From Burkholderiales bacterium (GTDB lineage Bacteria > Pseudomonadota > Gammaproteobacteria > Burkholderiales > JACQAP01): a stretch of DNA of 64,000 nucleotides. The notes below the pieces were generated by a model. The model was not told where the DNA came from, made no database searches, and saw only the letters and a program-made list of their open reading frames with translations. Of the stretch, positions 5,927 through 51,336 are shown one piece after another. Position 1 is the first letter of the stretch; each line of letters opens with the position of its first letter. Position numbers and translations under genes: made by a program. The DNA lies in contig DATENC010000004.1 in NCBI GenBank assembly GCA_035275265.1, positions 75,843-139,842 of the forward strand, in the 5' to 3' direction.

Positions 5927-6976
5927 ATGCCACGAAAGCTGGGTCACAAGGAGCCGCAGCAATTCACCCGTCGCCGATTCCTGGGAGCAGCGGCAGCAGG
6001 TGCGCTGGCTTCCGGTTCGCTGGGTAGCGCTGAAGCACTGGGCGCAGCTCCAGAGGGCTGGCCGATGACCGAAAAGTGGTTTCCGTCACGTTGGGGCGCA
6101 GGCGATCAGGCAGGCGCTTCCAATCTGATGACCTCACAGAAAGTGCTTGAGGCCACGAGCCTGATCAAGGTCGGGAAAGTCCACAGCTTGGGACGTGTAT
6201 ACGAAGCAGGTATGCCCTTTTTCGGAACACGCGGCTGGAACCTTAAGATTCCGAGCGCGCCTTTTTACGGACCGGCCGGTCGGAACAAACTTATTGCCAA
6301 TGAAGAATACCTTTGCGCGGAGATCGGACAAGTTGGGACACAGTTCGATGGCTTGTCTCACATCGGTGTAGAGACCAAAGGTCCGCACGACAGCTCCGGC
6401 AAGCTTTACTACAACGGGTTCAATGGCACCGATGTCCATGGCGCGTTTGGCATGAAGAAGCTCGGTATCGAGCATGTCAAGCCGCTTGTGACACGAGCGG
6501 TGATCTTCGACGTGAAAGGATTGAAAGGTCGAAACCTGGAGAAGGGGGAAGAAATTAGCGCGCAGGACCTCCGGGACGCACTTGCCCGTCAACGGCTAAG
6601 CGAATCCGACTTCAAGGAGGGCGACGTCGCGCTCGTGCGTTGCGGCTGGGGTGATCAGTGGATGGTGGTCGACAACAAGAAATACTACGACGGCGAGCCA
6701 GGGGTGGGCCTCGATGCGTCCCAGTGGCTGGTGGATAAAGGGGCTTGCCTGGTCGGGGCCGACAATTGGGGCGTGGAGGTGATTCCGAACCCGGATCGCG
6801 ACCTGAACTTTCCGTGTCACCATTTGCTGCTGACGATGAACGGGGTATTCATGTTCGAGAACCTGAATCTGGAAGGCCCCGTGCGGGACGGCACCTGGAT
6901 CGGTGCATTTTTCTTTAGTCCCGTTCCCGTGAAGGGCGCAACAGGATCCCCAGGAAATCCGCTTTTTATTGTTTAG
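5927..6976 (+). CDS. cyclase family protein (kynurenine-formamidase-like fold) with a Tat signal
   Basis: ATG at 5927 after GAGGGAGAAAG. TRRRFLGAAAAGALASG twin-arginine signal. Cyclase-family core, but the usual HxGTHxDxPxH motif reads QVGTQFDGLSH. Confidence 0.65.
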   Translation: MPRKLGHKEPQQFTRRRFLGAAAAGALASGSLGSAEALGAAPEGWPMTEKWFPSRWGAGDQAGASNLMTSQKVLEATSLIKVGKVHSLGRVYEAGMPFFGTRGWNLKIPSAPFYGPAGRNKLIANEEYLCAEIGQVGTQFDGLSHIGVETKGPHDSSGKLYYNGFNGTDVHGAFGMKKLGIEHVKPLVTRAVIFDVKGLKGRNLEKGEEISAQDLRDALARQRLSESDFKEGDVALVRCGWGDQWMVVDNKKYYDGEPGVGLDASQWLVDKGACLVGADNWGVEVIPNPDRDLNFPCHHLLLTMNGVFMFENLNLEGPVRDGTWIGAFFFSPVPVKGATGSPGNPLFIV

Positions 6977-8732: not shown

Positions 8733-8826
8733 GGGACGAGGGGCGAGGGACGAGGGTAGTGACAAGTGACGAGTGACAAGTGATGGGCCTAGCGGCAGTA
8801 AGGGAAAAACGGGAAGAACTGCAGGC
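8714..8826. repeat. mosaic word-repeat locus R4 (G-heptads + GTGAC heptads)
   Basis: GAGGGACGAGGGGCGAGGGACGAGGG followed by AGTGACAAGTGACGAGTGACAAGTGA, then CTAGCGGCAGTAAGGGAAAA and GAACTGCAGG. Confidence 0.9.
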
Positions 8827-10636: not shown

Positions 10637-10737
10637 AGGGACGAGGGGAGAGGGAAGAACTGCAGGGCTAGAAGTTAGGAAAGGCTCTAGTGATGTTACC
10701 CTTCACCCTCACATGCACCCGGAGGGGTGTCACTTCT
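10637..10737. repeat. mosaic word-repeat locus R6 (A + D modules)
   Basis: AGGGACGAGGGGAGAGGGAAGAACTGCAGG, then ACCCTTCACCCTCACATGCACCCGGAGGGGTGTCAC (D motif at 10710-10733). Confidence 0.9.
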
Positions 10738-10769: not shown

Positions 10770-11588
10770 ATGAAATCGATCAAGCGCGAGCAATACGAGG
10801 AAGCCCTCGAAGCACTGCACACCGAGCTGATCAACCTGCAGCACTGGATCATTGCCAATAACCAGCGCGTGGCCGTTATTTTCGAGGGGCGCGATGCCGC
10901 CGGCAAGGGCGGTGTGATCAAGGCCATCGAGGCACCGCTCAACGATCGCTACGTGCGCACCGTCGCGCTTTCGAAACCCAATGAACTTGAGCGCAGCCAG
11001 TGGTACTTCGAGCGCTACGCGGCCCAGTTGCCGAGTGCTGGTGAACTTGTCCTCTTCGATCGCAGCTGGTACAACCGCGCCGGTGTCGAACTGGTCATGG
11101 GCTTCTGCACACCCGCCCAACACAAGCAGTTCCTGAAGGACTGCCCGGCGTTCGAACGCCTGATCACCAACGACGGCCTGATCCTGCTCAAGTACTGGCT
11201 CTGCGTCGACCAGGAAGAACAGGAAGAACGCTTCGCCGAACGGGCGAAGGATCCCGCCAAGCGCTGGAAACTGTCTCCAATCGACATCAAGGCGCGCGAG
11301 AAATACGCCGCATACGGCAAAGTGCGCGACAGGATGCTGCGTGCGACCCACACCGATTACGCACCCTGGTACGTGGTCAACTTCAACGACCAGAAACGCG
11401 GTCGATTGAACCTGATCGATCACCTGCTCAAGCGGCTGCCTAAGCGCGAATCTCCGGCCCCGGAACTGTCTCTACCCAAACTCTCCGGCAAGCCTCTCAA
11501 GGAACACATCCCTCGCGGTTTTCTCATTGAAGAGGGTGTGTGGAGAGGGGTGAGGGGTGAGGGGAGGGCAGGGAACAGTGACAAGTGA
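10770..11588 (+). CDS. ppk2: polyphosphate kinase 2
   Basis: PPK2 motifs VIFEGRDAAGKGG (Walker A), FDRSWYNR and a lid region. Start at 10764 or 10770 (AAGGGG upstream). The last ~20 aa and the TGA stop are encoded by repeat R7. Confidence 0.85.
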   Translation: MKSIKREQYEEALEALHTELINLQHWIIANNQRVAVIFEGRDAAGKGGVIKAIEAPLNDRYVRTVALSKPNELERSQWYFERYAAQLPSAGELVLFDRSWYNRAGVELVMGFCTPAQHKQFLKDCPAFERLITNDGLILLKYWLCVDQEEQEERFAERAKDPAKRWKLSPIDIKAREKYAAYGKVRDRMLRATHTDYAPWYVVNFNDQKRGRLNLIDHLLKRLPKRESPAPELSLPKLSGKPLKEHIPRGFLIEEGVWRGVRGEGRAGNSDK

Positions 11589-12389: not shown

Positions 12390-12505
12390 AAGGGACGAGG
12401 GGCGCCCCGCAAGGGGATTCCCACAAGGGGATACCGGCCTTCGACCATAAATGAGGGAAGTGTGGCCCCCTCGTCCCTCTCCACTCGTCCCTCGCCCCTC
12501 GTGGC
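12390..12505. repeat. mosaic word-repeat locus R8 (G arm, reverse E block, C arm)
   Basis: AGGGACGAGGGGCG, then GCCCCGCAAGGGGATTCCCACAAGGGGATACCGGCCTTCGACCATAAATGAG (12403-12455, a 47-nt match to R3), then CCCTCGTCCCTCTCCACTCGTCCCTCGCCCCTCG. Confidence 0.9.
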
Positions 12506-12573
12506 CTAAGGTATTTACCTGATATCGCTGTAAGGAATGCACTACACGCGTTATGCGAATTGGGTAAACCGGA

Positions 12574-12602
12574 TTGACTTGCGACGAAAATTAGGGATCA
12601 AT
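12574..12602 (+). promoter_or_regulatory. putative sigma70-type promoter for WYCV paralog 1
   Basis: TTGACT, 17 nt, ATCAAT, located 33 nt upstream of the GTG start. Confidence 0.35.
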
Positions 12603-12937: not shown

Positions 12938-12962
12938 GGCCGCGGTGCGGCCCCTTCGTTTG
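12938..12962 (+). terminator. possible weak terminator after WYCV paralog 1
   Basis: GGCCGC / GCGGCC stem with a GGT loop, followed by CCTTCGTTT. Confidence 0.35.
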
Positions 12963-15305: not shown

Positions 15306-15392
15306 GGTGAAGGTGTGACACCCCTCCGGGTGCATGTGAGGGGGAAAGACCGGTGACGAGTGACAAGTGACGGGTGACAAGTGACCGGTGAC
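15306..15392. repeat. mosaic word-repeat locus R9 (reverse D + GTGAC heptads)
   Basis: GTGACACCCCTCCGGGTGCATGTG (15315-15338), then GGTGACGAGTGACAAGTGACGGGTGACAAGTGACCGGTGAC. Confidence 0.9.
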
Positions 15393-16240: not shown

Positions 16241-16410
16241 ACGAGGGAAGAGGGAAGAGGGAAGAGGGACGAGGGAAGAGGGAAGGGGAAAACCAATTCT
16301 CTTCACGAGGCGCCTTCACTGCTTTCCCCCGTCACTTGTCACCTGTCACCCGTCACTCCTTTTCCCTACTACCTTTCCCTCGCCCCTCTTCCCTCGTCCC
16401 TCGCCCCTAG
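16241..16410. repeat. mosaic word-repeat locus R10 (long G arm, reversed GTGAC words, complementary C arm)
   Basis: (GAGGGAA)n GAGGGACGAGGGAAGAGGG on the left. GTCACTTGTCACCTGTCACCCGTCAC in the centre. CCCTCGCCCCTCTTCCCTCGTCCCTCGCCCC on the right, whose reverse complement shares a ~19-nt match with the left arm. Confidence 0.9.
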
Positions 16411-16456
16411 CCAGTGCCCGCTATACTTGTGACATCCGCCTCGCTCTCCGTTCTCC

Positions 16457-18885: not shown

Positions 18886-19030
18886 AAAGGACAGGGGAGA
18901 GGGACGAGGGGTCACCCTTCACTCATTTATAGTCGAAGGCCGGTTATGGTCGAAGGCCGGTATCCCCTTGTGGGAATCCCCTTGCGGGGCACCCGCACAT
19001 GCACCCGGAGGGTGTCACGCCTTCACTTCT
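18876..19030. repeat. mosaic word-repeat locus R11 (forward E block x2 units + D motif)
   Basis: 18932-18992 is a perfect 61-nt reverse complement of 5141-5201. D motif at 18996-19018. Starts at the gspB-like TGA stop. Confidence 0.95.
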
Positions 19031-19039
19031 TGTGGTTCG

Positions 19040-23924: not shown

Positions 23925-23980
23925 TTCCCCTCGCCCCTTATGGTCGAAGACCGGTATCCCCTTGCGGGGCATCCCCGCAC
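23925..23980. repeat. mosaic word-repeat locus R12 (C-heptads + forward E block)
   Basis: TTTTCCCCTCGCCCCTTATGGTCGAAGACCGGTATCCCCTTGCGGGGCATCCCCGC. Confidence 0.8.
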
Positions 23981-25260: not shown

Positions 25261-25802
25261 AGCGTGCGGTCCGTCATTTCATCGGCAGCGGACTGCTCAT
25301 GATTCCAGGTCAGGATCATCAGCAGCGACTCGAGCGCCGCGCCGACGGGAATTGCCAGGTAGACGGTCCATTTCGGCACGTCCAGCACCGGTGACTGCTG
25401 CATCCAAGTACGATCGATGAACTGGATGCCGGCCCAGAGCAAGATCAGGCTGAAGGCGAGCGTGAGCGTGTTGGCCGCCCACACGACAATGCGGCGCCCG
25501 GTCGGCGGCAGCATCAACTCGAGCACTTCGACGCGGATGTGGCCGCGCGAGGCCGCCACCAACGCGGAGCTGAGCATGATCCCCCAGAACATCGCGCCAC
25601 GCACGAGTTCCTCGGCCCAGAACAGGGACTCGTTCAACACGTAACGGAAGAACACTTGCAGCAGGACAAGTACGAAGTAGCTGGCAAGCAGCGCGACCGA
25701 AACCGCGGTCAGCGCTGCTCGAACCCCTCTCCCCCTCTCCCCGACCCTCTCCCGCGAGGGGAGAGGGAGTAACTTCAGAAACGAAAACAAAGTCTGCCCC
25801 AC
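25257..25802 (-). CDS. dctQ: TRAP transporter small permease subunit
   Basis: Four hydrophobic segments and operon position. The only canonical in-frame start is GTG at 25802 without an SD. The first ~27 codons are encoded by an arm of the inverted repeat (LLPLPSRERVGERGRG). Confidence 0.75.
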   Translation of the reverse strand: MGQTLFSFLKLLPLPSRERVGERGRGVRAALTAVSVALLASYFVLVLLQVFFRYVLNESLFWAEELVRGAMFWGIMLSSALVAASRGHIRVEVLELMLPPTGRRIVVWAANTLTLAFSLILLWAGIQFIDRTWMQQSPVLDVPKWTVYLAIPVGAALESLLMILTWNHEQSAADEMTDRTL

Positions 25803-25863
25803 ATGTTCTGGTTTAAGGGCTCCCTCTCCCCTCGCGGGAGAGGGTCGGGGAGAGGGGGAGGGG
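25724..25863. repeat. inverted pair of a different REP-like element flanking the dctQ start
   Basis: Left arm 25724-25769 is CCCCTCTCCCCCTCTCCCCGACCCTCTCCCGCGAGGGGAGAGGGAG. Right arm 25820-25863 is its near-perfect reverse complement. Each arm also holds its own hairpin (CCCTCTCCCGCGAGGGGAGAGGG). Confidence 0.9.
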
Positions 25864-25866
25864 AAC

Positions 25867-26874
25867 TCATGCCTTGCCGGCGGCCTGCACGGCCTCGACC
25901 AGTGCCTTGCCCTTCGGTCCGGCCCTGCCGACGAAGGTATTGATGACCGGCCCCATCTTCGAGCGGAAGCTTGGGATGTCGGGGTTCGGATTTGCCTTGA
26001 TCAGTTTGGCGAGTTCATTCCAGGCGGTCTGCTGCGCCTTGAGGTTTATTTCCCACATGTCCTTCTGCACGGCTTCGACGGCCGCGTCGCGAATTACCTT
26101 CTGCACGTCCGGCGGAAGCGACGCCATCTTCCTGGCGCTCGCCATCATCGACGCCTCGGTGAATATGTGGTGGGTGCGGGTAACGAAGCCGGCTACCTCG
26201 TAAGTCTTGGTTGAGACCATGAAATCAGCCGGCCCCTCGAATGCGTCGATCACGCCGGTCTGCAGCGCCGTGTAGATTTCCCCCGCTGGTATCGGTGTTG
26301 GATTGGCACCGAGCGCCTTGGCCATTTCGACCCAGGTTGGAATCTCGGGCACACGCAGGCGCAGCCCGCGAACGTCGTCGGCCGTCTGGATCGGCTTCCT
26401 GGACAGGAAGACACGAAAGCCCGAAGCACCCAGCGAGAGCACTTCCACACCGAGGGAGTCTTTTGCGTCCTTGCAGACTTGCTGGCCGATTGGCCCGTAC
26501 AAGACCTTCTTCACGTGATCGTAGTCGTGGAACAGGAACGGCAGCGAGACAAACCCGAAATGCGGTTGCCAGTTGCCCAAAGTGCCCAGGTCGGTCCAGC
26601 ACATGTCGAGCGTGCCGAGTTGCAGCGCCTCGGCCGAGGTGCGCAGGTTGAAAAGCTGGGAGGCTGGACGGATGCTGATGGTGACCGCGCCGTTCGTGCG
26701 CTGTTTGACCATCTCTGCGAATTTCTCCGCCACCCCGTGGATCAGATGGGTTGTCGGAACGTGGTGCGAGAACACCAGATTGATCGGCGCTTGACCCCAG
26801 CTCCGCCGCGGTAGAACCGCCACGCCGGCGGCCGCGGCGCCTGCCTTCAACAGATCGCGTCTGGAAATCGCCAT
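25867..26874 (-). CDS. dctP: TRAP transporter substrate-binding protein
   Basis: Tat-like signal MAISRRDLLKAGAAAAG, DctP-family length, and operon context. Confidence 0.9.
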   Translation of the reverse strand: MAISRRDLLKAGAAAAGVAVLPRRSWGQAPINLVFSHHVPTTHLIHGVAEKFAEMVKQRTNGAVTISIRPASQLFNLRTSAEALQLGTLDMCWTDLGTLGNWQPHFGFVSLPFLFHDYDHVKKVLYGPIGQQVCKDAKDSLGVEVLSLGASGFRVFLSRKPIQTADDVRGLRLRVPEIPTWVEMAKALGANPTPIPAGEIYTALQTGVIDAFEGPADFMVSTKTYEVAGFVTRTHHIFTEASMMASARKMASLPPDVQKVIRDAAVEAVQKDMWEINLKAQQTAWNELAKLIKANPNPDIPSFRSKMGPVINTFVGRAGPKGKALVEAVQAAGKA

Positions 26875-27165: not shown

Positions 27166-27948
27166 TTGTGGCCGAGCGCTCGTGTGCGCCGGCGTTGGGT
27201 TCGAACGTTCCGGAGCCTGCCGCTCACGACGCAGGCGATCATTGGGTTGGCTGTGATTTTCATTTTCTGGCTTGTGCTCAATCTGGCCTACCAGGTCATC
27301 CGCAAGCCATCGGAACTGTTCTTTCCGGTCAGCGGTGCGCTCTACAAAATGCCTTCCGAAACATGGGAGGAATACGGTCCAATCTTCAAGAAGCATTCGA
27401 CAAGCATCGTTACGCCCGAACTTCTCGCCGCACTCGCGCAAGTGGAGGGATCGGGAAATCCAGTGGTACGCACGTACTGGCGTTGGTCTATGACGCTCGA
27501 GCCGTTCGACGTGTATCGGCCGGCGTCCAGCGCGGTCGGGATGTATCAAATCACGAACGGGACGTTTGTCGAGGCGAAGCGCTACTGCATTCATGACCAC
27601 GTAGTCGTCGAGGACGGTCCCTGGAACGATTTTCGGTCATGCTGGTTCAACGGTCTGTATTCGCGGGTCGTACCGACGCATGCTGTCGAACTCACCTCCG
27701 CTTACCTGGACCGCAGCGTTGCGAACATATTGAACCGGCTGCGCATCACGAACGCCTCGCTTCAGCAGAAGCAGGACCTGGTCGCCGTTATTCACGTATG
27801 CGGCGCGGGGGCAGGCGAGGTTTACGCGAGACGCCGTTTTCGACTGACTTCCGGTCAGCGGTGCGGAGATCACCCTGTCCAGCCGTATGTCGAGCGCGTG
27901 AATCTGATGAAACGGGTGTTTCAGGGGTTGGAGAGAAGCGAGGGGTGA
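27166..27948 (+). CDS. membrane-anchored lytic transglycosylase (SLT domain) protein
   Basis: One N-terminal TM segment. SLT motifs QVEGSGNP and SAVGMYQIT. Confidence 0.65.
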   Translation: MWPSARVRRRWVRTFRSLPLTTQAIIGLAVIFIFWLVLNLAYQVIRKPSELFFPVSGALYKMPSETWEEYGPIFKKHSTSIVTPELLAALAQVEGSGNPVVRTYWRWSMTLEPFDVYRPASSAVGMYQITNGTFVEAKRYCIHDHVVVEDGPWNDFRSCWFNGLYSRVVPTHAVELTSAYLDRSVANILNRLRITNASLQQKQDLVAVIHVCGAGAGEVYARRRFRLTSGQRCGDHPVQPYVERVNLMKRVFQGLERSEG

Positions 27949-28851: not shown

Positions 28852-29787
28852 ATGAAACTCGAATTCAAAGGTGTGTTTCCTGCTCCCCCTACGCCTATTG
28901 CCGAGGATGGGCGAATCCACGAGAAGGCTTTGCGTGCGCTACTCGATGACAATATTTCGCACGGATGCGGCGGCTTCTGGATGGCAGGGAGCACCGGCGA
29001 GGGGCCGATCCTCACGGATGAGCAACGGGATGCCGTCGCAAGAATTTCCGCGGAAGTGTGCAAAGGACGCGCACTCTGCATCATGCAGGTAGGCGCCATG
29101 AGTACGTCCAGCGCCGTGAAGGCGGCGAGGACCGCGCGGGCGGCGGGTTGTGCCGCGGTATGCTGCCTGCCACCGCTGTTCTTCCGGAGCAGCGAGCGTT
29201 CCATCATCGACTACTACAAGGCGGTGGCCGACGCGGCGGCCGACCTTCCGTTTTTCGTCTACAACCTCCCGCAACTCACGCAGGTGGAGTTCATCCCGGC
29301 GATGATGGAAAAGCTGGCGCGCGAGATTCCCACTCTGAAGGGCCTCAAACACTCCGCGCCGGATTTTTCCCAGATCCGCGTTTTCACGGATATGGGGCTT
29401 ACCTGCTTTTCCGGCAATGGGGCGTTTCCGCTGCCGGCAATCACTATGGGCGCGGTGGGCACGATCGATGCACCGCTCTCGATTGCGCCGTGGCACTACG
29501 TCGAGCTCTTCTCCGCCTGGGAAGCGGGCCACATGACCGTGGCTCAGTCTCTGCAGGACGGGGTGCGCAAGTATGTGGATCTGGTATGGATGTACGGTGC
29601 GCCTGCCGATGTCTGCAAGACGGTGCTCTCGGCTAGACTCGGTGTCGATTGCGGACGCTCCATCCCGCCGGTGAATCGCCTGACCGACGAACAACGGCGT
29701 GAAGTGCTCCGCGCAGCGGAGGCGTTGGGTGTGACCACAAGACAAGGACGAGCGGCGCGGGTCGAAGGACGAAGGGCGAATGGGTGA
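28852..29787 (+). CDS. dihydrodipicolinate synthase/N-acetylneuraminate lyase family protein
   Basis: DapA-family N-terminus (GVFPAPPTP...GSTGEG). The last ~17 aa and the TGA stop lie in repeat R16. Confidence 0.8.
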   Translation: MKLEFKGVFPAPPTPIAEDGRIHEKALRALLDDNISHGCGGFWMAGSTGEGPILTDEQRDAVARISAEVCKGRALCIMQVGAMSTSSAVKAARTARAAGCAAVCCLPPLFFRSSERSIIDYYKAVADAAADLPFFVYNLPQLTQVEFIPAMMEKLAREIPTLKGLKHSAPDFSQIRVFTDMGLTCFSGNGAFPLPAITMGAVGTIDAPLSIAPWHYVELFSAWEAGHMTVAQSLQDGVRKYVDLVWMYGAPADVCKTVLSARLGVDCGRSIPPVNRLTDEQRREVLRAAEALGVTTRQGRAARVEGRRANG

Positions 29788-29905
29788 AGCAGTGAAGGAG
29801 TGAATGAGTGAATGTGTGAAGGGTGAACGCGTTGAATTCCTCTAGCTCTTAGCCCCGAAACCCTGCAGTTGACCCTCGTCCCTCTCCCCTCTTCCCTCGC
29901 CCCTG
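29743..29905. repeat. mosaic word-repeat locus R16 between convergent genes
   Basis: GTGAAGCAGTGAAGGAGTGAATGAGTGAATGTGTGAAGGGTGAAC on the left. CCCTGCAGTTGACCCTCGTCCCTCTCCCCTCTTCCCTCGCCCCTG on the right. It overlaps both gene 3' ends. Confidence 0.9.
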
Positions 29906-31249
29906 TTCTTCCGTCAGTGTTCCCCCGCCCAGGCGATTCCGCACCCCGCCGATATGTTCACGCAGTACGTAAAGCTGGTCTGCAAACGCAAGTGGCGTAC
30001 GTAGATTGGTCACCGACTCCTGAATGTCGTCAAGCCGTTTAAGGATTTCCTGTTTGCGCTCCGGGCTCGGGTTGGCGAGCATGTCGCGCTCGAGCGCCAT
30101 CAGCGCGCCGTACCATTTGTAGATGCGTGATCGTACCCGCCAGCGGTATAGCGGCGGCACTATGCGTATCGCCGGGATCACGATCACTACCAGCGGCACC
30201 AGCACCACCAGCATGCGATCCACCAGGCTTGCCAGCCAGAACGGCAATTTCTTGTAAAGGAACGGCGTACCCGAACGGTAGAAGCGTTGCGCGTCTTCGC
30301 TGATCGGAAAATCACGTTCCAGCGGCGCCGGGAATTCCCCGGCCTTGCGGTACATGCCCGCGGAGCCGTGAATCTCCCGCGCAGCGCTGATCAGCAGGTC
30401 CGATAGCGCGGGATGCAGGTTGTCGCGGGCGACCAGTTCAACGGTCGGACCTACGAGTTCGACTGCGTCGTGCGGTATGTCCTGCCCCAGGTCAAAGGCG
30501 CCTTTCGGGAGCGTGAGCCGCGAAAGAAACTTCAGGCGGCGCATGTAACCGTCGGCCTGGGTGAAGTTCATCAATTTGATCCCCGGGACCTTCAGCAAAT
30601 CGCGCAGCACCTGTCCGCGCACCAGCTCGCCCATGAGGAAAGCGGCATCGATCTTCCCCTGCTTGAGTGCCTCGACCGCATCGTCCCCGTCAAAATCCAA
30701 CAGGCGCGTCGGGCCCTTGTCCATGCCGTTTGCAACCAGGAACTTCATCGCGATCACGTGGGTCCCGCTGCCTTCCGGCCCGATAGCGACGCGTTTGCCT
30801 TCCAGTTGGGTGAGCCGCTCTACCAGTTCATTGCCGCGATAAAAGACTAGAACCGGCTGTACGAACACGCTGCCCAGAGACATCAGGCCGCCGGTTTCGA
30901 TGCCTTCGCTCACGCCGCCCAGCACGAATCCCACATCGGCGTAGACCGTGCGATCCGCCAAGCGCCGCAGGTTGTCCTGCGCGCCCTCGGTTTCGACCAC
31001 CCGCACGTTCACTCCGCTGCGCGCGATGATCTTTGCGTAGCGCTCGGCGGTTCGGTTGTAGCTGCTTTCCTTCGGGCCGGCGAGCATGACGATCGAATCC
31101 GGGGGCGCCGGGCCGATGAATTTGACCGCCAGCCAGGCGCCGAGCGCGGTGATCAGGACCACAGGTACGCCGATAGCAAGCAGGTCGTGCCAGGATACTT
31201 TCACCAGCTTGACCGGCATTTGCAGGCGTTTGATTCCTTGGGGGCTCAT
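29849..31249 (-). CDS. TAXI-family (COG2358-like) solute-binding domain protein with an N-terminal and a C-terminal TM anchor
   Basis: TM1 (LLAIGVPVVLITALGAWLAV), a PBP-like core, TM2 (LVVLVPLVVIVIPAI) and a helical tail. Paralog of the 62922-64000 product. Start ambiguous (31219, 31249, 31261 or 31276). The C-terminal tail is encoded by R16. Confidence 0.7.
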   Translation of the reverse strand: MSPQGIKRLQMPVKLVKVSWHDLLAIGVPVVLITALGAWLAVKFIGPAPPDSIVMLAGPKESSYNRTAERYAKIIARSGVNVRVVETEGAQDNLRRLADRTVYADVGFVLGGVSEGIETGGLMSLGSVFVQPVLVFYRGNELVERLTQLEGKRVAIGPEGSGTHVIAMKFLVANGMDKGPTRLLDFDGDDAVEALKQGKIDAAFLMGELVRGQVLRDLLKVPGIKLMNFTQADGYMRRLKFLSRLTLPKGAFDLGQDIPHDAVELVGPTVELVARDNLHPALSDLLISAAREIHGSAGMYRKAGEFPAPLERDFPISEDAQRFYRSGTPFLYKKLPFWLASLVDRMLVVLVPLVVIVIPAIRIVPPLYRWRVRSRIYKWYGALMALERDMLANPSPERKQEILKRLDDIQESVTNLRTPLAFADQLYVLREHIGGVRNRLGGGTLTEEQGRGKRGEGRGSTAGFRG

Positions 31250-32908: not shown

Positions 32909-33535
32909 ATGCCCACCATAAGGATTTCTCCCCGTGTCAGCTTGCTTGTTGCAATGTCCGCACTGCTTGTCGGTGACGGCCTCACCGCGGAAACCACGGC
33001 ACCGCCTGCGCAAGCGGCAACTGCCATCTTTGCCGGCGGCTGCTTCTGGTGCGTGGAAGCGGACTTCGACAAACTTCCTGGCGTAACGAACACCGAATCG
33101 GGTTACGCCGGAGGCAAGCTGCAAAATCCGACTTACGAGCAGGTGAGCGCCGGCGGCACCGGCCATACCGAGGCGGTACGCGTGACCTATGATCCGAAGA
33201 AGGTGACTTACGAGCAACTGCTGGAATATTTCTGGCACCACGTCGATCCCACAGTGAAGGACCAGCAGTTCTGCGACATCGGCAACCAGTACCGCACCGC
33301 GATCCTTTACCTGGATGAGGCGCAGCGGCGTGCGGCGACAGCCAGCAAGGCGTTGCTCGACAAGAGCGGTCGACTTGCGCACATCTACACTGAAATCGTG
33401 CCGGCCGGCAACTTCTATCCGGCCGAGGAATATCACCAGGACTACTACAAGAAGAACCCGATCCGTTACAAATACTACCGTGCAAGCTGCGGCCGTGATG
33501 CGCGGCTAAAGGAGGTCTGGGGAAAGAAGGGTTGA
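32909..33535 (+). CDS. msrA: peptide-methionine (S)-S-oxide reductase, secreted form
   Basis: Signal peptide followed by the GGCFWC active-site motif and a YHQ(D)Y C-terminal motif. Confidence 0.9.
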
Positions 33536-33621
33536 GGGGAGAGGGACGGAGGGGGATTGAGGATTGGGGATTGGGTCGTAGCCTTCACCCTTCAGCCTCA
33601 CATGCACCGGAGGGGTGTCAC
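33531..33621. repeat. mosaic word-repeat locus R17 (G words, GATTG heptads, D motif)
   Basis: GTTGAGGGGAGAGGGACGGAGGGGGATTGAGGATTGGGGATTGGG, then CCTTCACCCTTCAGCCTCACATGCACCGGAGGGGTGTCAC (D motif at 33599-33621). Confidence 0.9.
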
Positions 33622-34533: not shown

Positions 34534-34622
34534 AGAGTGAGGTGCGAGGGACGAGGGGCGGACCGAAAGGCAGTGAAGTAAGACCCCTCTTCCCCCGCCC
34601 CTCGTCCGTCTTCCCTCTCCTC
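34521..34622. repeat. mosaic word-repeat locus R18 between convergent genes (G arm / C arm)
   Basis: GTGAAGAAGTGAAGAGTGAGGTGCGAGGGACGAGGGGCGG, then CCCCTCTTCCCCCGCCCCTCGTCCGTCTTCCCTCTCC. The arms share a complementary GACGAGGGGCGG core. Confidence 0.9.
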
Positions 34623-36912: not shown

Positions 36913-36980
36913 GTGCGGAGAACTCCCGTGCCTGAAACAGGTCACGAGAAGATCACCTGAATTTGGCGGAGGATATTGTC

Positions 36981-37163
36981 GTGATTTCTTTGCAAACACC
37001 TGAGCCCCCGAGGCACGATCCAGCCCACGACCGGCCGCCTCCGATGCCGCCGCCTTCAATCGACGACGTTCCACTGATCATTCCACCGCAAGAGGAACCC
37101 CCCATCCTGCCGCCGGACGACGAGCCGGGACCGGTGCACGAGCCGCCAGCACGCAAACACTAG
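36981..37163 (+). CDS. small proline-rich hypothetical protein
   Basis: GTG 7 nt after GGAGGA. 60 aa rich in PPP; PPPSIDDVP resembles the PPPIDRPPP repeats of the 45555-45845 product. Confidence 0.35.
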   Translation: MISLQTPEPPRHDPAHDRPPPMPPPSIDDVPLIIPPQEEPPILPPDDEPGPVHEPPARKH

Positions 37164-37289
37164 GGACGAGGGGAGAGGGGCGAGGGGCGAGAAAGAGGGA
37201 AGAGGGACGAGGGACGAGGAAAGACGGAATGGGGATTGAGGATTTGGGAATGAGCTTTTCACCCCTCGCCCCTCGCCCCTCTTCCCTCA
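37161..37289. repeat. mosaic word-repeat locus R20 between convergent genes (G arm, GATTG words, C arm)
   Basis: AGGGACGAGGGGAGAGGGGCGAGGGGCGAG...GAGGGACGAGGGACGAGG on the left, GGGGATTGAGGATTTGGGAATG in the centre, CACCCCTCGCCCCTCGCCCCTCTTCCCTCAC on the right. The arms are complementary over GAGGGGCGAGGGGCGAG. Confidence 0.9.
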
Positions 37290-38866
37290 CGCCTAACGCG
37301 TTTCGCGCGCAGGCGATCGGGCGAAAGATAGATTTGGCGGTAAACCTCGAACGGCATGGTGTCCGCCGCTTCGATGCGCCGCTGTTCCTGCAGCGATTCT
37401 GTGGCCATGCTTTCGAAGCGGTTCTGCACGCGCGTTGCCAGCGGAAGTTCCAATAGCTCCTTTTTGTATTGCAGCGACCGGCTCAGCGCGAAACGAGGAA
37501 ACGAATTTGCGTAGCTTTGCGCCATCTCCTGCAGGACCCGCGCGGAGGGTGTGATCGACGACATCCCCAACGCGACCGCCGCTGTGGCCAGCGCATCGCC
37601 ATAGGCGCTGCCGCGGTGCGCGGCATCCAGCGCATCGGCGATCGGTACGTACTCGCGCAACAACTCGCCCCCCCAGTCGGCAGGGGACAGCGAATCATTG
37701 CCCCTGGTCAGGCGCACTTCCGGATCACGGCCTTGGCGCGCGACCAGAAGCTGGTTGCGCGCAAGCACGACGATCTCCGCCGGCGTGTCCGCCGGACCAT
37801 CGCTGAGCAGACAGTGCAGCAGGAAAATATCCAGGAACCGGATAGTCGTGGCGGTGATGCCGATCGGACAGAACGGATCCAGGTCCATCAAACGCACTTC
37901 CACGTATTCGACGCCGCGCTCGCGCAAAGCGTGCAGCGGCCGTTCGCCGGGACGGATCGGCCGCTTCGGCCGGATGGTGCCGTAGAACTCGTTCTCGATC
38001 TGCAACAGGGTAGTAGCGAGCTGACGATAGTCGTCGCCATCGCGGACGCCGATCTTTTCGTAATCGGGATAAGGGTGCGTCAGCGCGTCGGATAGCGAGT
38101 GCGCATAGGTATCCAGGTCGTTGTAGCTTACCGCCAGCGAGCCCTGCGCCGCGCTTTGGTAGCCGAGCGGACTCATGCGCAGCGATGTCGCCCACGGCAG
38201 ATACATGGTGCCCGGAACCAAGTGCTGCAGGCCGTGATCGCGGCCCGCAACGAAGCTGTTGCACACCGCCGGGGAGGCGCCGAACAGATACAGCAACAGC
38301 CAGGAGTGCCGGCGGAAGTTGCGGATCAGGGAAAAGTACGCGGCGTCCTGGAAACTCTGCACCGGGCCTGAAATGCCAGCGGCTTGCTGGAGGAGCGGCC
38401 AGGCCCGCTCCGGCATCGAGAAGTTGTAGTGGATCCCGGAAATGGTCTGCATCCGGGAGCCGTAGCGGTGCGACAGGCCGCTGCGATACACGGTCTTGGC
38501 CCGGCCGACGTTGGAGTTCCCAAAGCGGCCGAGCGGGATGTCCTTATCCGCGGGCAGGGTGCAGGGCATGCTGGCACACCAGAGCGTCTCGTCGCCGACA
38601 TGCCGATGGACAAACTGGTGTATCTGCTTCAACTCCTCGAGACAGCTTTCGACGTCCGCATGGACGCCGGTTATCAGCTCGAGCTGCGACTCGCTGAAGT
38701 CCGTGGTGATATGCGGATGGGTTAGCGGCGAGCCGAGTGCCCTCGGATGCGGGGTGCTGGCCAGCGTTCCATCCGGCCTGACGCGCAGGCTTTCTTTCTC
38801 AATGCCGCGCCGCAGGCCCCTGAGCACGTCGGGCGTGAGTGTATGGAGTCGGTTTCGTAGCGACAA
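37259..38866 (-). CDS. gshA: glutamate--cysteine ligase (E. coli type)
   Basis: N-terminal RGIEKESLRV and TDFSESQLELIT motifs with GshA length. The C-terminal RREGRGARGEG tail and the TGA stop are encoded by repeat R20. Confidence 0.9.
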   Translation of the reverse strand: MSLRNRLHTLTPDVLRGLRRGIEKESLRVRPDGTLASTPHPRALGSPLTHPHITTDFSESQLELITGVHADVESCLEELKQIHQFVHRHVGDETLWCASMPCTLPADKDIPLGRFGNSNVGRAKTVYRSGLSHRYGSRMQTISGIHYNFSMPERAWPLLQQAAGISGPVQSFQDAAYFSLIRNFRRHSWLLLYLFGASPAVCNSFVAGRDHGLQHLVPGTMYLPWATSLRMSPLGYQSAAQGSLAVSYNDLDTYAHSLSDALTHPYPDYEKIGVRDGDDYRQLATTLLQIENEFYGTIRPKRPIRPGERPLHALRERGVEYVEVRLMDLDPFCPIGITATTIRFLDIFLLHCLLSDGPADTPAEIVVLARNQLLVARQGRDPEVRLTRGNDSLSPADWGGELLREYVPIADALDAAHRGSAYGDALATAAVALGMSSITPSARVLQEMAQSYANSFPRFALSRSLQYKKELLELPLATRVQNRFESMATESLQEQRRIEAADTMPFEVYRQIYLSPDRLRAKRVRREGRGARGEG

Positions 38867-38908
38867 ACGGGTTCTCCGAATAGGTCTGTGGCAGAATTTC
38901 GCAAGGAT

Positions 38909-39020
38909 AAATGATTCGGTGATTGAATGATCGGGCGATTGGCGATCAGGCGGTTTGGAGATCAGGTAATTGAAAAACCACTTTCAATTGCTCAATCCCT
39001 CAATAACTCAATCGCCCACT
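38909..39020. repeat. GATTG-word imperfect palindrome (R21) in the gshA/helicase divergent region
   Basis: Central hairpin AATTGAAA/TTTCAATT (38968-38989). The outer GGGCGATTG (near 38933) pairs with CAATCGCCC (near 39010). Same word family as 172-302. Confidence 0.8.
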
Positions 39021-39077: not shown

Positions 39078-41213
39078 GTGCCGACCGCAACAGCCTTCGC
39101 ACGACTCAATTCCGCGCAGCGTGCGGCGGCGCGCTTTGGCGCTCGCGACCAGAGTGGCGGATTCCGCGCGGGGCCATTGCTCATCATCGCAGGGGCAGGC
39201 ACCGGCAAGACCAACACGCTGGCGCACCGGGTTGCGCACCTGATTCTGGAGGGGGTGAGCCCGGAACGCATCCTGCTGCTCACTTTCACACGGCGCGCGG
39301 CGCAGGAGATGACGCGGCGGGCGCAACGGATCGTGGCTACGGTGCTGGCAGAGACGGCCGGCAAAGGGGGCACGGGTGCCGAGATCGCAGTGAAGCTACC
39401 CTGGTCGGGAACCTTTCACTCCATCGCCAACCGGCTGATCCGGTGCCATGCGGCCCGTGTTGGACTCGATGCGAACTTCAGCGTACTGGATCGTGGCGAT
39501 GCGGCCGACCTGATGGACGTGGTGCGCCATGAATTGGGCCTGTCAAGGACCGAGAAGCGCTTTCCGCGCAAGGACACCTGCCTCGCCATCTATTCACACC
39601 GGGTCAATACCCAGGGGCTGCTCGCCGAAACGCTGGCCACGGTATTTCCGTGGTGTGCGGACTGGGAGAAAGAACTCACCGGACTGTATCGCGCCTATGT
39701 GGAGCGCAAGCTCGCCAACCAGGCGCTCGATTACGACGATCTGCTGCTGTACTGGCACACGATGGCTTCCGACCCATCGCTCGCCGAAGAGATGGCCGCG
39801 CAGTTCGACCATATCCTGGTGGATGAGTACCAGGATACGAATGCACTTCAGGCAGAAATCCTCAAGGCGCTGCGACCCACCGGCGCGGACGTGACCGTGG
39901 TGGGCGACGACGCACAATCGATCTACTCGTTTCGCGCTGCCACGGTCGAGAACATTCTGGACTTTCCGGGCCAGTACACGCCGCCGGCAACCGTAGTGAC
40001 CCTGGAAGAAAACTTTCGCTCTACGCAAGGTGTGCTGGATGCGGCGAACGCGCTGACCGCCGAAGGCAGCCGCCAATACCGCAAAGTGCTGCGCGGCGTG
40101 CGCGGGGCCGGAGAGCGGCCACACTACGTAACGGTGTCGGACGATCAGGCGCAGGCGGACTACGTTGTGGCTCGGGTGTTGCAGACGCGCGAGCGGGGGG
40201 TGGCTCTCAAACGCCAGGCGGTGCTGTTCCGCAGCTCGCACCACAGCGACGTGCTTGAACTCGAGCTGGTCCGGCGCAACATCCCTTATGTGAAATACGG
40301 TGGGCTGAAATTCCTCGAAGCCGCTCACGTCAAGGACATGCTGGCAGTGCTGCGCTGGGCGGACAATCCGAAGAACCGTGTCAGCGCCTTTCGCGCCCTG
40401 CAACTGTTGCCGGGCATGGGGCCGGCGAACGCGGCGCGACTCTTCACGCACTTCGAAGCCGCTGGCCACGACTGGCGTGCGCTCGCGGCCTTCAATGCTC
40501 CGCCGCTCGCGGCCGAGGGATGGCCACCCTTCGCGGAACTCATGGCAACGCTGGGAGCGCCCGAAGGGCCATGGCAGGGGCAGGTCGGTCGCGTGCGCGA
40601 ATGGTACGAGCCGCACCTGGAGCGTCTCTACGAAGCGGCACAGGTGCGCGCGGGTGACCTGCTGCAGCTCGAACGCATTGCGCCGCAATTCCCGACCAGG
40701 GAGCAATTCCTGAGCGACCTCGCGCTCGACCCGCCGCAGGCGAGTAGCGACTTGGCCGGCGCGCCGTTGCTGGACGAGGACTACCTGGTGCTCTCAACCA
40801 TCCATTCGGCCAAGGGCCAGGAGTGGGACGCTGTGCACGTGCTCAATGTGGCGGACGGCAATTTCCCGTCGGAATTCACCACCGGCGACGCCGGGCAGAT
40901 CGAGGAAGAACGTCGTCTGTTGTACGTGGCGATGACTCGGGCGAAGACCGACCTTCACGTCATTGCGCCGCTGCGCTATTACATTTCTCAGCAGCCGCGA
41001 CGGGGAGATGCGCATGTGTACGGCGCGAAGAGCCGCTTCATGACCCGCGCAGTGCTCGCGCAGTTCCAGGAGGATACCTGGCCCCAGCCCGAGGCGGGCG
41101 TCACGCCATCTCGCGCCGCGCCCCCGGTGGATGTTGCCGGGAGACTGCGCGGGATGTGGGTTAACGGCGGTGAAGGGGGAAGGGTGAAGAGTGAAGGGGA
41201 AATGAGTGAGTGA
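39078..41213 (+). CDS. UvrD/Rep/PcrA family ATP-dependent DNA helicase
   Basis: GTG start. AGAGTGKT Walker A, LLLTFTRRAAQEM, DEYQDTN, and C-terminal helicase motifs (SIHSAKGQEW, YVAMTRA). The tail is encoded by R22. Confidence 0.9.
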   Translation: MPTATAFARLNSAQRAAARFGARDQSGGFRAGPLLIIAGAGTGKTNTLAHRVAHLILEGVSPERILLLTFTRRAAQEMTRRAQRIVATVLAETAGKGGTGAEIAVKLPWSGTFHSIANRLIRCHAARVGLDANFSVLDRGDAADLMDVVRHELGLSRTEKRFPRKDTCLAIYSHRVNTQGLLAETLATVFPWCADWEKELTGLYRAYVERKLANQALDYDDLLLYWHTMASDPSLAEEMAAQFDHILVDEYQDTNALQAEILKALRPTGADVTVVGDDAQSIYSFRAATVENILDFPGQYTPPATVVTLEENFRSTQGVLDAANALTAEGSRQYRKVLRGVRGAGERPHYVTVSDDQAQADYVVARVLQTRERGVALKRQAVLFRSSHHSDVLELELVRRNIPYVKYGGLKFLEAAHVKDMLAVLRWADNPKNRVSAFRALQLLPGMGPANAARLFTHFEAAGHDWRALAAFNAPPLAAEGWPPFAELMATLGAPEGPWQGQVGRVREWYEPHLERLYEAAQVRAGDLLQLERIAPQFPTREQFLSDLALDPPQASSDLAGAPLLDEDYLVLSTIHSAKGQEWDAVHVLNVADGNFPSEFTTGDAGQIEEERRLLYVAMTRAKTDLHVIAPLRYYISQQPRRGDAHVYGAKSRFMTRAVLAQFQEDTWPQPEAGVTPSRAAPPVDVAGRLRGMWVNGGEGGRVKSEGEMSE

Positions 41214-45554: not shown

Positions 45555-45845
45555 ATGAGGCTCCACAGACCCGAACCGCCGGTCGACTACCCGGGTAATC
45601 AGCCCCCCAAACCGCCCCCTATCGACCGGCCGCCGCCGGTCAAGGAACCGCCACCGATAGATCCGGGCACTCGGCCCCCTGTCAACCCGCCCCCTATCGA
45701 TCGGCCGAGGCCCGTCAAAGAACCGCCGCCGGCAGACCCCGCCGGTCAGCCGCCCGTCCAGCCGCCTCCCATCGATCGGCCGCCGCCGGTCAGAGACCCA
45801 CCGCAGAGACCGCCACGGAAGGATCCGCCGGTGAGAAAGCGCTGA
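45555..45845 (+). CDS. proline-rich tandem-repeat protein ([14 protein letters not shown] x3)
   Basis: ATG after AGAAGG. Three copies of a roughly 23-26-aa Pro-rich unit. Directly upstream of folE. Confidence 0.45.
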
Positions 45846-46502: not shown

Positions 46503-46535
46503 GGCCCGACAACGAAGCCGTCGGGCCATTTTTAC
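46503..46535 (+). terminator. intrinsic terminator after folE
   Basis: GGCCCGAC / GTCGGGCC 8-bp stem followed by ATTTTT. An A-run upstream allows some bidirectional action. Confidence 0.8.
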
Positions 46536-46810: not shown

Positions 46811-46839
46811 TAAAAAAACGGGCACCCGAAGGTGCCCGT
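46811..46839 (-). terminator. intrinsic terminator after the 46879-47151 gene
   Basis: ACGGGCACC / GGTGCCCGT 9-bp stem with a CGAA loop. On the minus strand it is followed by a U7 run. Confidence 0.85.
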
Positions 46840-46878
46840 TAGTCCGTGAAGCGCCGCTGACGCGCTTCACCGGCCACT

Positions 46879-51295: not shown

Positions 51296-51336
51296 AGAAA
51301 AACCCCCGCCATTTTTTTGGGCGGGGGTTTTTCTTT
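51296..51336. terminator. bidirectional intrinsic terminator between convergent genes
   Basis: AACCCCCGCC / GGCGGGGGTT 10-bp stem, flanked by an A-rich run upstream and a T-run downstream. Confidence 0.85.

Follow-up and report, generated by a model that had tools for sequence, protein, structure and literature searches.

Tail-to-tail arrays of G-rich heptamers at the convergent ends of gshA and a small ORF in an uncultured soil Burkholderiales bacterium

We analysed a 64,000-nucleotide stretch of DNA, hereafter referred to as the window, from the genome of an uncultured soil betaproteobacterium of the order Burkholderiales, with a focus on the element located at 37161-37289. This element lies at the junction of two convergent genes. 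On the left, a proline-rich ORF of 66 codons occupies 36963-37163 on the + strand. It was uncalled by the gene caller of the sequence collection. Its GC content at the three codon positions (0.78, 0.46, and 0.66) is similar to that of this genome's genes, and its stop position and last 11 codons are kept in L169, a relative with 93% GshA identity (PPVRKH* vs PPARKH*). On the right, gshA, which encodes glutamate-cysteine ligase (PF04262), occupies 37259-38866 on the - strand. The 95-nt spacer between the two stop codons is occupied by repeats.

On the side of the small ORF, the repeats form its sense-strand 3' flank, a G-rich arm at 37162-37229 (+) made of about nine head-to-tail heptamers (GGGACGA, GGGGAGA, GGGGCGA twice, GGGAAGA, GGGACGA twice, and others), the first of which overlaps the TAG stop codon of the ORF at 37161-37163. 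This arm contains no T and consists of 56% G, 35% A, and 9% C. It is followed at 37231-37254 by a second unit type (GGGGATT, GAGGATT, and GGGAATG), oriented like the G arm, which is the unit of the Nostoc STRR1-type repeats; the window contains another minor GGGGATT run at 33552-33575. The centre of the element, CTTTTCA (37255-37261), contains the stop codon of gshA, which reads TGA on the - strand (37259-37261). Beyond it lies the C-rich arm (37262-37289), which on the - strand reads as the G-rich heptamers GGGAAGA GGGGCGA GGGGCGA GGGGTGA. This arm is inside gshA and encodes a non-conserved tail, REGRGARGEG*, where GshA of relatives ends in ...RLRAKRVKV* or in other repeat-derived tails. The array on this side has extended into gshA, to which it contributes the final ten codons and the stop. 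Overall, the element consists of two separate tandem arrays of a lineage-specific family, GGGRMGA, placed tail to tail, and is no purpose-built palindrome. Both arrays begin at or within the stop codon of the gene to which they belong, and in each case the sense strand of that gene carries the G-rich, C-poor sequence of the array.

The two arms share an 18-nt perfect complementary core, whose left half is AGAGGGGCGAGGGGCGAG at 37174-37191 and whose right half is CTCGCCCCTCGCCCCTCT at 37265-37282, both as read on the + strand. The initial annotation had claimed that paired G-rich and C-rich arms with complementary cores of 12-19 nt occur at four sites of the window. All four were found, the order being invariably G arm then C arm, with extended arms of 12-49 nt, 78-100% complementarity, and 33-67 nt between arms. 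The composite at 16241-16412 (+) has the longest perfect core, 19 nt (16264-16282/16384-16402), and comprises a G arm (16243-16292), GTCAC-type units (16331-16356), and a C arm (16360-16412). Its neighbours are two co-directional genes, an SDR gene and then an ExeA-like gene, and a conserved -10-like box lies just downstream. The composite listed at 34521 spans 34534-34621 (+), with a G arm at 34539-34561, a C arm at 34584-34617, and a 13-nt core (34549-34561/34595-34607). The weak composite at 12390-12505 (+) has a two-unit G arm, a conserved module that we call F (12420-12450), a C arm at 12467-12502, and a 12-nt core (12391-12402/12467-12478); for about 500 nt to its right we found no convincing gene. 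That such composites sit between convergent genes was true of 34521 and 37161, and not of 16241 or 12390.

Tandem repeats finder (TRF) reported period-7 arrays at 37162-37229, 16243-16290, 8731-8756, and other places. The majority of the window arrays are single arms or are opposed by an arm whose units are of a non-complementary type (1837-2034, 18886-19039, and 29771-29908). The array at 8733-8756 (+) is an example of an unpaired G arm with four G tracts; it begins immediately after a stop codon and is followed by AGTGACA heptamers. An assembly artefact as the source of the repeats was rejected, as independent assemblies and samples agreed with 0 differences in 3.4 kb, and a second independent comparison gave 2 mismatches and no indels in 21.6 kb. 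Within these 3.4 and 21.6 kb we saw no unit-number polymorphism between samples of one strain, and hypermutable phase variation is therefore unsupported at that scale. A CRISPR was set aside because the units are contiguous, with no spacers.

We then considered how the arrays are placed relative to genes. The window contains 19 strict heptamer chains and the adjoining 9.6 kb another 3, whereas 158 related gshA loci, totalling 1.04 Mb, contain none. Gene 3' flanks read in the sense orientation are GGG-rich, and G arrays lie 0-16 nt from the left ORF and about 70-400 nt from the right one. In an automated count over five clade contigs, 31 of 46 arrays were nearer the ORF boundary located 5' of their G strand (p = 0.026). 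After hand scoring of five arrays that overlap ORF 3' ends, 36 of 46 followed this rule. In another count made by hand, about 23 arrays abutted or overlapped a stop in the sense-G orientation vs one or two in the opposite orientation. The earlier proposal that transcripts would end on the G-rich strand was supported for most arrays in the five contigs, in that the 3'-end array is G-rich on the gene's own strand. The same placement is seen throughout the repeat-rich part of this genome and in uncultured Burkholderiales related to it: the G strand begins next to an ORF boundary, in most cases a stop codon. Some arrays (4976, 10440, 16376, and 62075) precede start codons and have their G-rich strand antisense. 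Interleaved with the G arrays are other oriented unit families, GTGACAA, GTGAAGG/GTGAATGA, and GATTGAG, as well as conserved longer modules, E and F, copies of which are scattered in both orientations. Two genomes share a 140-nt long-hairpin doublet, located in different gene contexts. Incidentally, as many units contain TGA and as the periods 7 and 8 are not multiples of 3, we asked whether the sense orientation provides a three-frame stop-codon bumper; array-bearing 3' flanks averaged 0.93 stop frames, the same as flanks free of arrays, and the idea was dropped.

These rules are those of known repeats. Rehm et al. 2015 (PMC4692102) described G-rich heptamers in Xanthomonas (GGGAATC) and in Nostoc/Anabaena (GGGGA(C/T)T, STRR1-type), the G-rich strand of which is the coding strand at most 50 bp from or overlapping a stop, or the non-coding strand just upstream of a start. 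According to that study, convergent inverted pairs are frequent and can yield stem-loops competing with G-quadruplexes (G4s), transcripts start or stop at such repeats, related genomes share the position and type (single or paired) of the repeats and differ in their length and sequence, each family is confined to one lineage, and function was left unassigned. The window likewise has mostly non-coding, head-to-tail 7-nt units, each with a G3-4 tract, that follow the stop/start orientation rule in the counts given above and form convergent inverted pairs, four of them complementary. Likewise, the same loci are occupied in relatives with variable sequence and length (the gshA end in 8 of 8, and the flanks of the GspB and pentapeptide genes). 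In contrast, the window units (GGGACGA, GGGGCGA, GGGAAGA, and GGGGAGA) have no sequence relation to GGGNATC, which places them in another sequence family of the same kind of element, and the arrays are interleaved with the other oriented families and the two longer modules, in an uncultured soil Burkholderiales. What we describe is the same set of position and orientation rules with an unrelated unit family, in a third lineage.

The fit to other systems is looser. E. coli REP/BIME elements are reported to stabilise upstream mRNA and to affect termination. Like these and the REPINs of Pseudomonas, the window arrays are intergenic, lie mostly at 3' ends or between convergent genes, form mosaics of oriented modules, and make hairpins from inverted pairs. 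A REP, however, is an imperfect palindrome of 20-40 nt with a fixed sequence, mobilised by a RAYT enzyme, whereas the window arms are purine-only arrays without self-complementarity whose copies are not conserved in sequence; the G arm has no T, and hence no self-pairing, and is therefore no REP-type palindromic unit. No RAYT (PF01797) was found among the approximately 45 genes with Pfam matches in about 74 kb of genome around the window. The TAACTGA heptamers of Beggiatoaceae, cyanobacteria, and Bacteroidetes, for which binding of a post-transcriptional regulator was proposed (MacGregor 2015, PMC4679880), are also direct repeats, and the window arrays resemble them in being lineage-restricted intergenic tandem heptamers near ORF boundaries; unlike the window arrays, TAACTGA repeats lie mostly a few nucleotides upstream of starts, are A/T-rich, and almost never form inverted pairs. 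The E. coli intergenic G-rich motifs for which switching between hairpin and G4 was predicted (Kaplan et al. 2016, PMC5100583) are conserved single motifs, whereas the window has tandem arrays. An Rfam scan gave no match at gathering thresholds, and a search for tRNA and tmRNA found none. At relaxed E-values, only sub-threshold eukaryotic miRNA-precursor models were matched, which reflects the long hairpins.

We next turned to these hairpins, which the initial annotation had listed as candidates at gene ends. The RNA of the focal element folds at -70 and -67 kcal/mol (z -5.3 and -6.3), and three of the four composites fold much better than shuffles. Under a stricter null, in which nucleotides were shuffled within each arm only, folding remained significant at 16241 (z -4.3/-4.9) and 37161 (z -3.8/-3.6), was marginal at 34521 (z -2.1), and was not significant at 12390. 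These folds speak for selection of the hairpin itself, as a bidirectional terminator devoid of a U tract or as a stem-loop protecting the 3' ends of both convergent transcripts, the main idea of the initial annotation. Yet, in an all-vs-all matrix of duplex energies, cognate arms held ranks 2-15 among the 15 G arms and 1-8 among the 8 C arms. Any G arm pairs with any C arm about equally, and a locus-specific co-evolution of arms in the window was therefore rejected: complementarity stems from the unit family and not from the locus. Facing arrays of one family would be complementary automatically. Also against a selected hairpin are the majority of window arrays, which are single or face a non-complementary type, and the 16241 composite, which stands between co-directional genes just upstream of a -10-like box.

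The orthologous gshA end in relatives provided further evidence. Searches of JGI metagenomes and GTDB genomes gave best gshA matches of 87% and 76%, respectively, and nearer relatives came from the protein collection only. All 8 relatives (76-94% identity) carry a sense-strand tandem array at or over the gshA stop, and the units differ (GTGAAGG, GGGGTGA, GTGAATNTC, and GTGACGNNC), sister lineages having non-G4 units of 8-9 nt. When full spacers were available (the window and five relatives), 5 of 6 could form a significant hairpin from unrelated arm sequences: the window, L002 (z -5.2), L003 (z -8.9, with a 29-bp perfect stem), L082 (z -3.4), and L171 (z -3.45). In L002, the hairpin is compact, being made of a GTGAAGG unit and its complement followed by TGTTTTT, and in L105 a private variant is mirrored in both arms. 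These findings favour selection on the hairpin, as does the appearance of the 18-nt perfect core in both arms of the window. In contrast, L169, the closest relative with a full spacer, has both arrays and no significant hairpin (z +0.3/-0.2). With this exception and the generic pairing of arms, the notion of a hairpin designed at the locus does not stand, and we consider it unlikely that the hairpin is the selected feature.

The comparison with L169 was informative in another respect. Flanks are about 93% identical, arrays differ, and the units change in concert (GGGACGA in one, GGGACTA in the other). The perfect 18-nt core is present in both arms in the window only, and neither L169 arm has it. 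It would thus have arisen in both arms after the split from this relative, most economically by template switching from arm to arm. The gshA-end arrays evolved in place, sharing flanks and having units that are partly homologous, and unit numbers also vary between relatives at the flanks of the GspB and pentapeptide genes. All this suggests that the arrays turn over fast, through slippage, concerted unit change, and gain or loss of whole composites, and that position at the gene end and orientation would persist. The perfect complementarity of the arms may accordingly be of recent origin, both arms having changed together.

Another possibility was that the G arms work as G4s, in RNA, in non-template DNA, or in a DNA:RNA hybrid, and thereby cause transcriptional pausing or termination, or shield the 3' end. 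The window has 16 canonical motifs (four G3+ tracts, loops of 1-7 nt) vs 2.3 +/- 1.4 in shuffles; 14 of the 16 lie in heptad arrays or in the 25724-25866 doublet, and 2 of the 16 inside ORFs. Motifs include 37163-37187 (+), 37262-37286 (-), 16245-16268, 16377-16400, and 8733-8756, the last being GGGACGAGGGGCGAGGGACGAGGG, as had been reported. The absolute G4Hunter scores of the arms are 1.4-2.1, and heptamers of like G3N4 design from Xanthomonas and Nostoc form G4s in K+, as seen by CD (PMC4692102). The claim that the G arms match the G4 pattern was correct for 8733-8756, 37161, and 16241, and not for two of the four listed arms, those at 12391-12404 and 34539-34561, which have just two G3 tracts. 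At the gshA end, the sense-strand motif is present in the window and L170 only and is absent from 6 of 8 relatives (L168, L169, L171, L002, L003, and L082). Moreover, the GTGACAA, GTGAATGA, and GATTGAG units found in the same positions and orientation cannot form G4s, and at sites where the G arm is followed by a complementary one, G4 and duplex are in competition. G4 formation as the function of the arms is, in our view, very unlikely.

We also asked whether the composites could be non-autonomous mobile elements, MITE- or REPIN-like, with the arms as terminal inverted repeats, inserted at stops by an enzyme encoded elsewhere. Indeed, the 172 nt at 16241-16412, arms and loop included, are cleanly absent from L164 (a 96% relative, about 91-95% nucleotide identity), and the junction shows a repeat of 2 nt, AG. 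Because both ends of L164 overlap within the same SDR gene, it is probably mis-joined at module F, and we used it for local junctions only. The repeats are lineage-restricted, the assemblies of L168 and L170 break at arrays, and the dispersal of modules E and F and of the 140-nt doublet also speaks for mobility. However, 2 nt is too short for a target-site duplication and fits equally a microhomology-mediated deletion of an unstable palindrome. A MITE with a conserved interior was rejected, as the four composite loops are unique and have no second copy in about 74 kb of genome, window included, or in the relatives' loci compared. Arms vary in unit number and order, the gshA-end arrays evolved in place, and no transposase-like Pfam was found among the approximately 45 annotated neighbouring genes. 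Mobility of the composites thus appears improbable, even if whole composites can be cleanly gained or lost.

A simpler view is that the arrays are functionless by-products of replication slippage, kept where they do little damage, mainly in the unconstrained bases after stops, and that the hairpins are accidental. It agrees with the fast turnover of unit type and number between close relatives, the lineage restriction, the encroachment on ORF 3' ends that adds non-conserved tails, the generic complementarity, the hairpin-free L169, and the published Xanthomonas and Nostoc repeats, which are likewise without assigned function. Neutral decay, in contrast, fails to predict the near-exclusive sense-G orientation at stops (about 23 vs one or two) and the maintenance of an array at one gene end through 24% protein divergence with its sequence replaced, and the argument that units carrying stops in all frames are better tolerated was tested and failed. 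We regard a purely neutral origin as somewhat unlikely.

Conventional terminators offered a point of comparison. As had been noticed initially, they are rare in the repeat-rich part of the window, with essentially one stem-plus-U terminator (12938-12962), vs three canonical ones at gene ends of the repeat-free block (near 46503-46527, 46817-46840, and 51300-51335). Like bidirectional intrinsic terminators, the focal element lies between convergent stops and can form a GC-rich stem on both strands. In contrast with these, the composites have loops of 33-67 nt instead of 3-8 nt, a slippery stem pairing in several registers, and no U/A tract, a T run being absent after the C arm, and a terminator scan of 3' flanks found nothing at the four composite sites. 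The focal element is not a canonical intrinsic terminator, although ordinary ones are present elsewhere in the same contig. In the 3' flank of GspB, the place of the window arrays is taken in L167 by a canonical bidirectional terminator. To the left of the window, in its own genome, arrays stand beside canonical bidirectional terminators (L162, at about 6800-6845 and 7495-7535). This contradicted a strict replacement of terminators by arrays and indicated that arrays are not simply terminator substitutes.

From these data, we favour as probable a joint explanation covering the identity of the arrays, the origin of the hairpins, and a function at transcript boundaries. A role at transcript boundaries is plausible by analogy with the repeats described above. 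More specifically, composition, position, and this analogy lead us to propose, tentatively and with some doubt, that the arrays act as orientation-dependent transcript-boundary elements. The RNA leaving a gene would end in a G-rich, C-poor tail, which could be locked into a long hairpin if a partner arm follows or into a G4 if four tracts are present, and a tail so locked would hinder 3' exonucleases and cause RNA polymerase to pause. A polymerase going on to the neighbouring gene would transcribe the partner array, giving RNA with 50-60% C and 7-10% G. The RNA running towards the next gene has 52% C and 7% G over 95 nt, and 49% C and 11% G over 120 nt. Such C-rich, G-poor RNA has the composition of a Rho entry site, so that read-through would be limited, and antisense transcription with it. 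At the gshA end, the array persists while unit sequence, period, and the potential for G4 and hairpin change, which points to conservation of position and strand composition and of no particular structure.

A bolder extension of this proposal, which we think unlikely, is that the strand-oriented arrays serve as genome-wide punctuation at ORF boundaries in this Burkholderiales clade. G-rich structured RNA would leave genes and C-rich Rho-loading RNA would approach them, neighbours would be insulated, and intrinsic terminators would be largely supplanted. Selection would then bear on position, orientation, and strand composition, while the 7-9-nt units drift and homogenise within and between arms. 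If arrays prove to set transcript ends or to block read-through, many high-GC bacteria seemingly devoid of intrinsic terminators will need re-annotation. If they lack such a role, they are a clear example of selfish or slippage DNA with a strong orientation.

A few additional observations weigh against the proposed function. The focal C arm, with 28 nt, is short for a Rho entry site, and the non-G-rich units of relatives (GTGAATATC and GTGACGAC) show just a weak C>G skew on the opposite strand. Arrays located upstream of starts with antisense G would give mRNAs a C-rich leader, save for cases in which the promoter is downstream of the array. Fast turnover, restriction to a lineage, and encroachment on ORFs suit a selfish or neutral repeat just as well. 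Last, whatever their role, the arrays cause practical trouble in the form of broken assemblies, false C-terminal extensions, and spurious ORFs.

The element at 37161-37289 lies between a 66-codon proline-rich ORF and the convergent gshA gene. Its left arm is a G-rich run of about nine heptamers (37162-37229), directly followed by GGGGATT-type units (37231-37254), a CTTTTCA centre and the C-rich run of the right arm (37262-37289); an 18-nt perfect complementary core is common to both runs. The left arm starts inside the TAG stop codon (37161-37163) of the proline-rich ORF, which has gene-like codon-position GC and a 3' end that a relative shares in conserved form. The right arm falls within the minus-strand gene gshA, whose last ten residues (REGRGARGEG*) it encodes; GshA of relatives ends in ...RLRAKRVKV* or other repeat-derived tails. 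Both arms are thus G-rich arrays when read along the sense strand of the gene to which each belongs. Fold energies were -70 and -67 kcal/mol for the two strands (z of -5.3 and -6.3 against shuffles). The window contig is metagenome-assembled, and its DNA was also present in ENA assembly ERZ27257057 and the Logan assembly of SRR5195143. In the shared stretches, these copies showed 2 mismatches over 21.6 kb and 0 over 3.4 kb, with no indels and no array length differences, so the repeats are real. The feature itself is real, and the initial annotation described it correctly at the sequence level.

Opposed G-rich and C-rich arms were present at all four annotated sites, with perfect cores of 12 nt (12390-12505), 19 nt (16241-16412) and 13 nt (34521) at the other three, in line with the 12-19 nt first reported. 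Extended complementary arms measured 12-49 nt and were spaced 33-67 nt apart. Under a stricter null, in which bases were shuffled only inside each arm so that one half stayed G-rich and the other C-rich, folding was significant at 16241 and 37161, marginal at 34521 and not significant at 12390. A location between convergent genes, proposed for three composites, held for 34521 and 37161 only; 16241 is flanked by co-directional SDR and ExeA-like genes, and no convincing gene was found to the right of 12390. Canonical G-quadruplex (G4) motifs, attributed to the G arms, were indeed abundant in the window (16 versus 2.3 ± 1.4 in shuffles), except that the arms at 12390 and 34521 have two G tracts only. 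In a duplex-energy matrix of 15 G arms by 8 C arms, cognate partners were no better matched than strangers: complementarity is generic, and arises because two arrays of one family face each other.

Read in the sense direction, the 3' flanks of genes were GGG-rich, and G arrays stood 0-16 nt from the ORF lying 5' of their G strand and about 70-400 nt from the next ORF. This orientation rule was obeyed by 31 of 46 arrays in an automated count over five contigs of the clade (p = 0.026), and by 36 of 46 after rescoring five arrays that overlap ORF 3' ends. A purely neutral reading of the arrays leaves this bias unexplained. Stop-codon tolerance was tried as its cause, and failed. Between genes, the DNA forms a mosaic that combines oriented units (GAGGGNN, GTGACAA, GTGAAGG/GTGAATGA, GGGGATT/GATTGAG) with two conserved modules that follow the same rule, are interleaved with the heptamer arrays and each hold small GC hairpins. 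Module E (GTGACACCCCTCCGGGTGCATGTG) occurs at 1931-1954(-), 5114-5137(+), 10710-10733(-) and 15315-15338(+), and module F (CCCGCAAGGGGATACCGGCCTTCGACCATAA) at 1967-1997(-), 5159-5189(+), 12420-12450(+), 18944-18974(-) and 23938-23968(-); in module F, three copies of a 17-nt unit occupy 5172-5223. Near-identical module copies exist in relatives L164 and L172.

ORFs end inside arrays at 27942-27948, 33529-33535, 29873-29908, 41169-41199, 11534-11564 and 37262-37289, the stop codon often being supplied by a GGGGTGA or GTGAAGG unit. The array-derived tail of GshA (10 residues) is non-conserved, and GshA homologues in the protein collection range from 515 to 556 residues, partly through different C-terminal tails. 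Tails that originate from repeats in this way pose a hazard for annotation.

The arrays are lineage-restricted. A strict heptamer pattern had 19 occurrences in the window, 3 in the neighbouring 9.6 kb and 0 in 1.04 Mb covering 158 related gshA loci. The gshA end is nevertheless array-occupied in every close relative, by GTGAAGG-type units in L168, L169, L171 and L002 (87-94% identity), (GGGGTGA)n in L170, GTGAATNTC 9-mers in L003 and GTGACGNNC in L082. Relatives identified through GshA and the ExeA-like protein were all uncultured Betaproteobacteria/Burkholderiales, several of soil origin. Hairpins at the gshA end were significant in L002, L003, L082 and L171. L169, the closest relative in which the convergent spacer is complete, keeps both arrays but forms no hairpin there (z of +0.3/-0.2), which weakens a reading of the elements as hairpins only. 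A reading as G4s only is weakened by unit families unable to form one; among the relatives examined, the gshA sense strand carries a G4 motif in the window and L170 only. The hairpin and G4 mechanisms initially put forward are facultative rather than conserved features. In the window/L169 alignment, identity in the flanks is about 93%. The arm on the ORF side shows partial homology and a concerted change of units (GGGACGA versus GGGACTA), on the gshA side the unit family has been exchanged, and only the window has the 18-nt perfect core in both arms. A more distant betaproteobacterial contig (L105, 1620-1715) has GGGTGCT x4 and AGCACCC x4 heptamers at a convergent-gene pair, with a private variant unit mirrored in both arms (GAGTACT/AGTACGC; fold z of -6.5), so the opposed-array architecture reaches beyond the immediate clade.

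Turnover was rapid at other shared loci too. Composite 16241-16412, situated just before a conserved TATACT box, is absent from a 96% relative as a single clean 172-nt indel, the junction carrying a 2-nt AG repeat. This supports a reading of the composites as mobile elements, which the uniqueness of their loop sequences weakens. Unit numbers differ from relatives at two further shared flanks, and orthologues of the 33718..34533 gene again bear units or modules in sense orientation at their stops, differing in content. At the weak composite 12390-12505, a 96% relative (L164, 4101-7384) has an array-flanked 3.3 kb extra, with genes for a UbiB-like protein and an outer-membrane beta-barrel protein; an indel breakpoint thus adjoins the C arm. 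A mis-join at module F is probable in contig L164 itself, because both of its ends reach into one SDR gene and overlap there.

Clear stem-plus-U terminators were found at three gene ends (about 46503-46527, 46817-46840 and 51300-51335), all in the repeat-free block (~41.7-59.5 kb, 18 kb, zero arrays), whose GC content resembles that of the remaining window. In the repeat-rich part there is essentially a single one (12938-12962), a weak candidate, as initially annotated. At the GspB flank, L167 carries a canonical bidirectional terminator in place of the window's arrays; in the left flank of the window genome, canonical terminators and arrays stand side by side. Contig L165 contains a ~180-nt element (GAAGGGGTCAGGTCTTGTTTCTTGCAGGGATCAGAGGGACATCCCTCGGGAC...) twice (~8520-8700 and 12415-12590), one copy occupying the GspB 3' flank, a position taken by arrays in the window. 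At 25715-25875, a 140-nt long-hairpin doublet, made of two inverted CCCCTCTCCCCCTCTCCCCGACCCTCTCCCGCGAGGGGAGAGGGAG copies ~46 nt apart in C-then-G order, straddles the junction of two minus-strand genes. Its copy in L167 (15476-15635; 81% relative) shows 86% mean column identity, a different gene context and two compensatory arm-to-arm changes (GA/TC versus AG/CT). The doublet looks like a REPIN/MITE-like structured mobile element, separate from the heptamer arrays.

Among described repeats, the G-rich heptamer SSRs of Xanthomonas (GGGAATC) and Nostoc (GGGGA(C/T)T) come closest. This class has conserved loci of variable length, 70-75 convergent inverted pairs in each Xanthomonas genome, G4 formation in vitro and transcripts that tend to begin or end at the repeats, without established function (PMC4692102). 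The window arrays share its placement relative to stops and starts, including overlapped stop codons, but their unit sequence differs: they are of the same kind, not the same sequence family, and extend a known, poorly understood class with a further member. They lack at least one defining feature of REP/BIME elements, of intrinsic terminators and of MITEs.

As to function, our best guess, unproven and held at somewhat less than even confidence, is that the arrays mark transcript boundaries. RNA exiting a gene would be G-rich and C-poor, and either the partner arm or a G4 could lock it; a polymerase carrying on would produce C-rich, G-poor RNA, a composition expected of a Rho entry site. Read-through RNA from gshA would be 52% C and 7% G over 95 nt, and that over 16293-16412 would be 49% C and 11% G over 120 nt.

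The small proline-rich ORFs at 36963-37163 and 45555-45844 had no Pfam match or known function; both have PPPxD/PPPI motifs, and the latter includes a 75-nt tandem repeat (45608-45796, 2.5 copies). Finally, the divergent gshA/uvrD promoter region (38900-39015) holds an inverted pair of GATTG/CAATC-type 8-nt units (GTGATTGAATGATCGGGCGATTGG ... CAATTGCTCAATCCCTCAATAACTCAATCGCC), and a similar pair occurs at 170-302.
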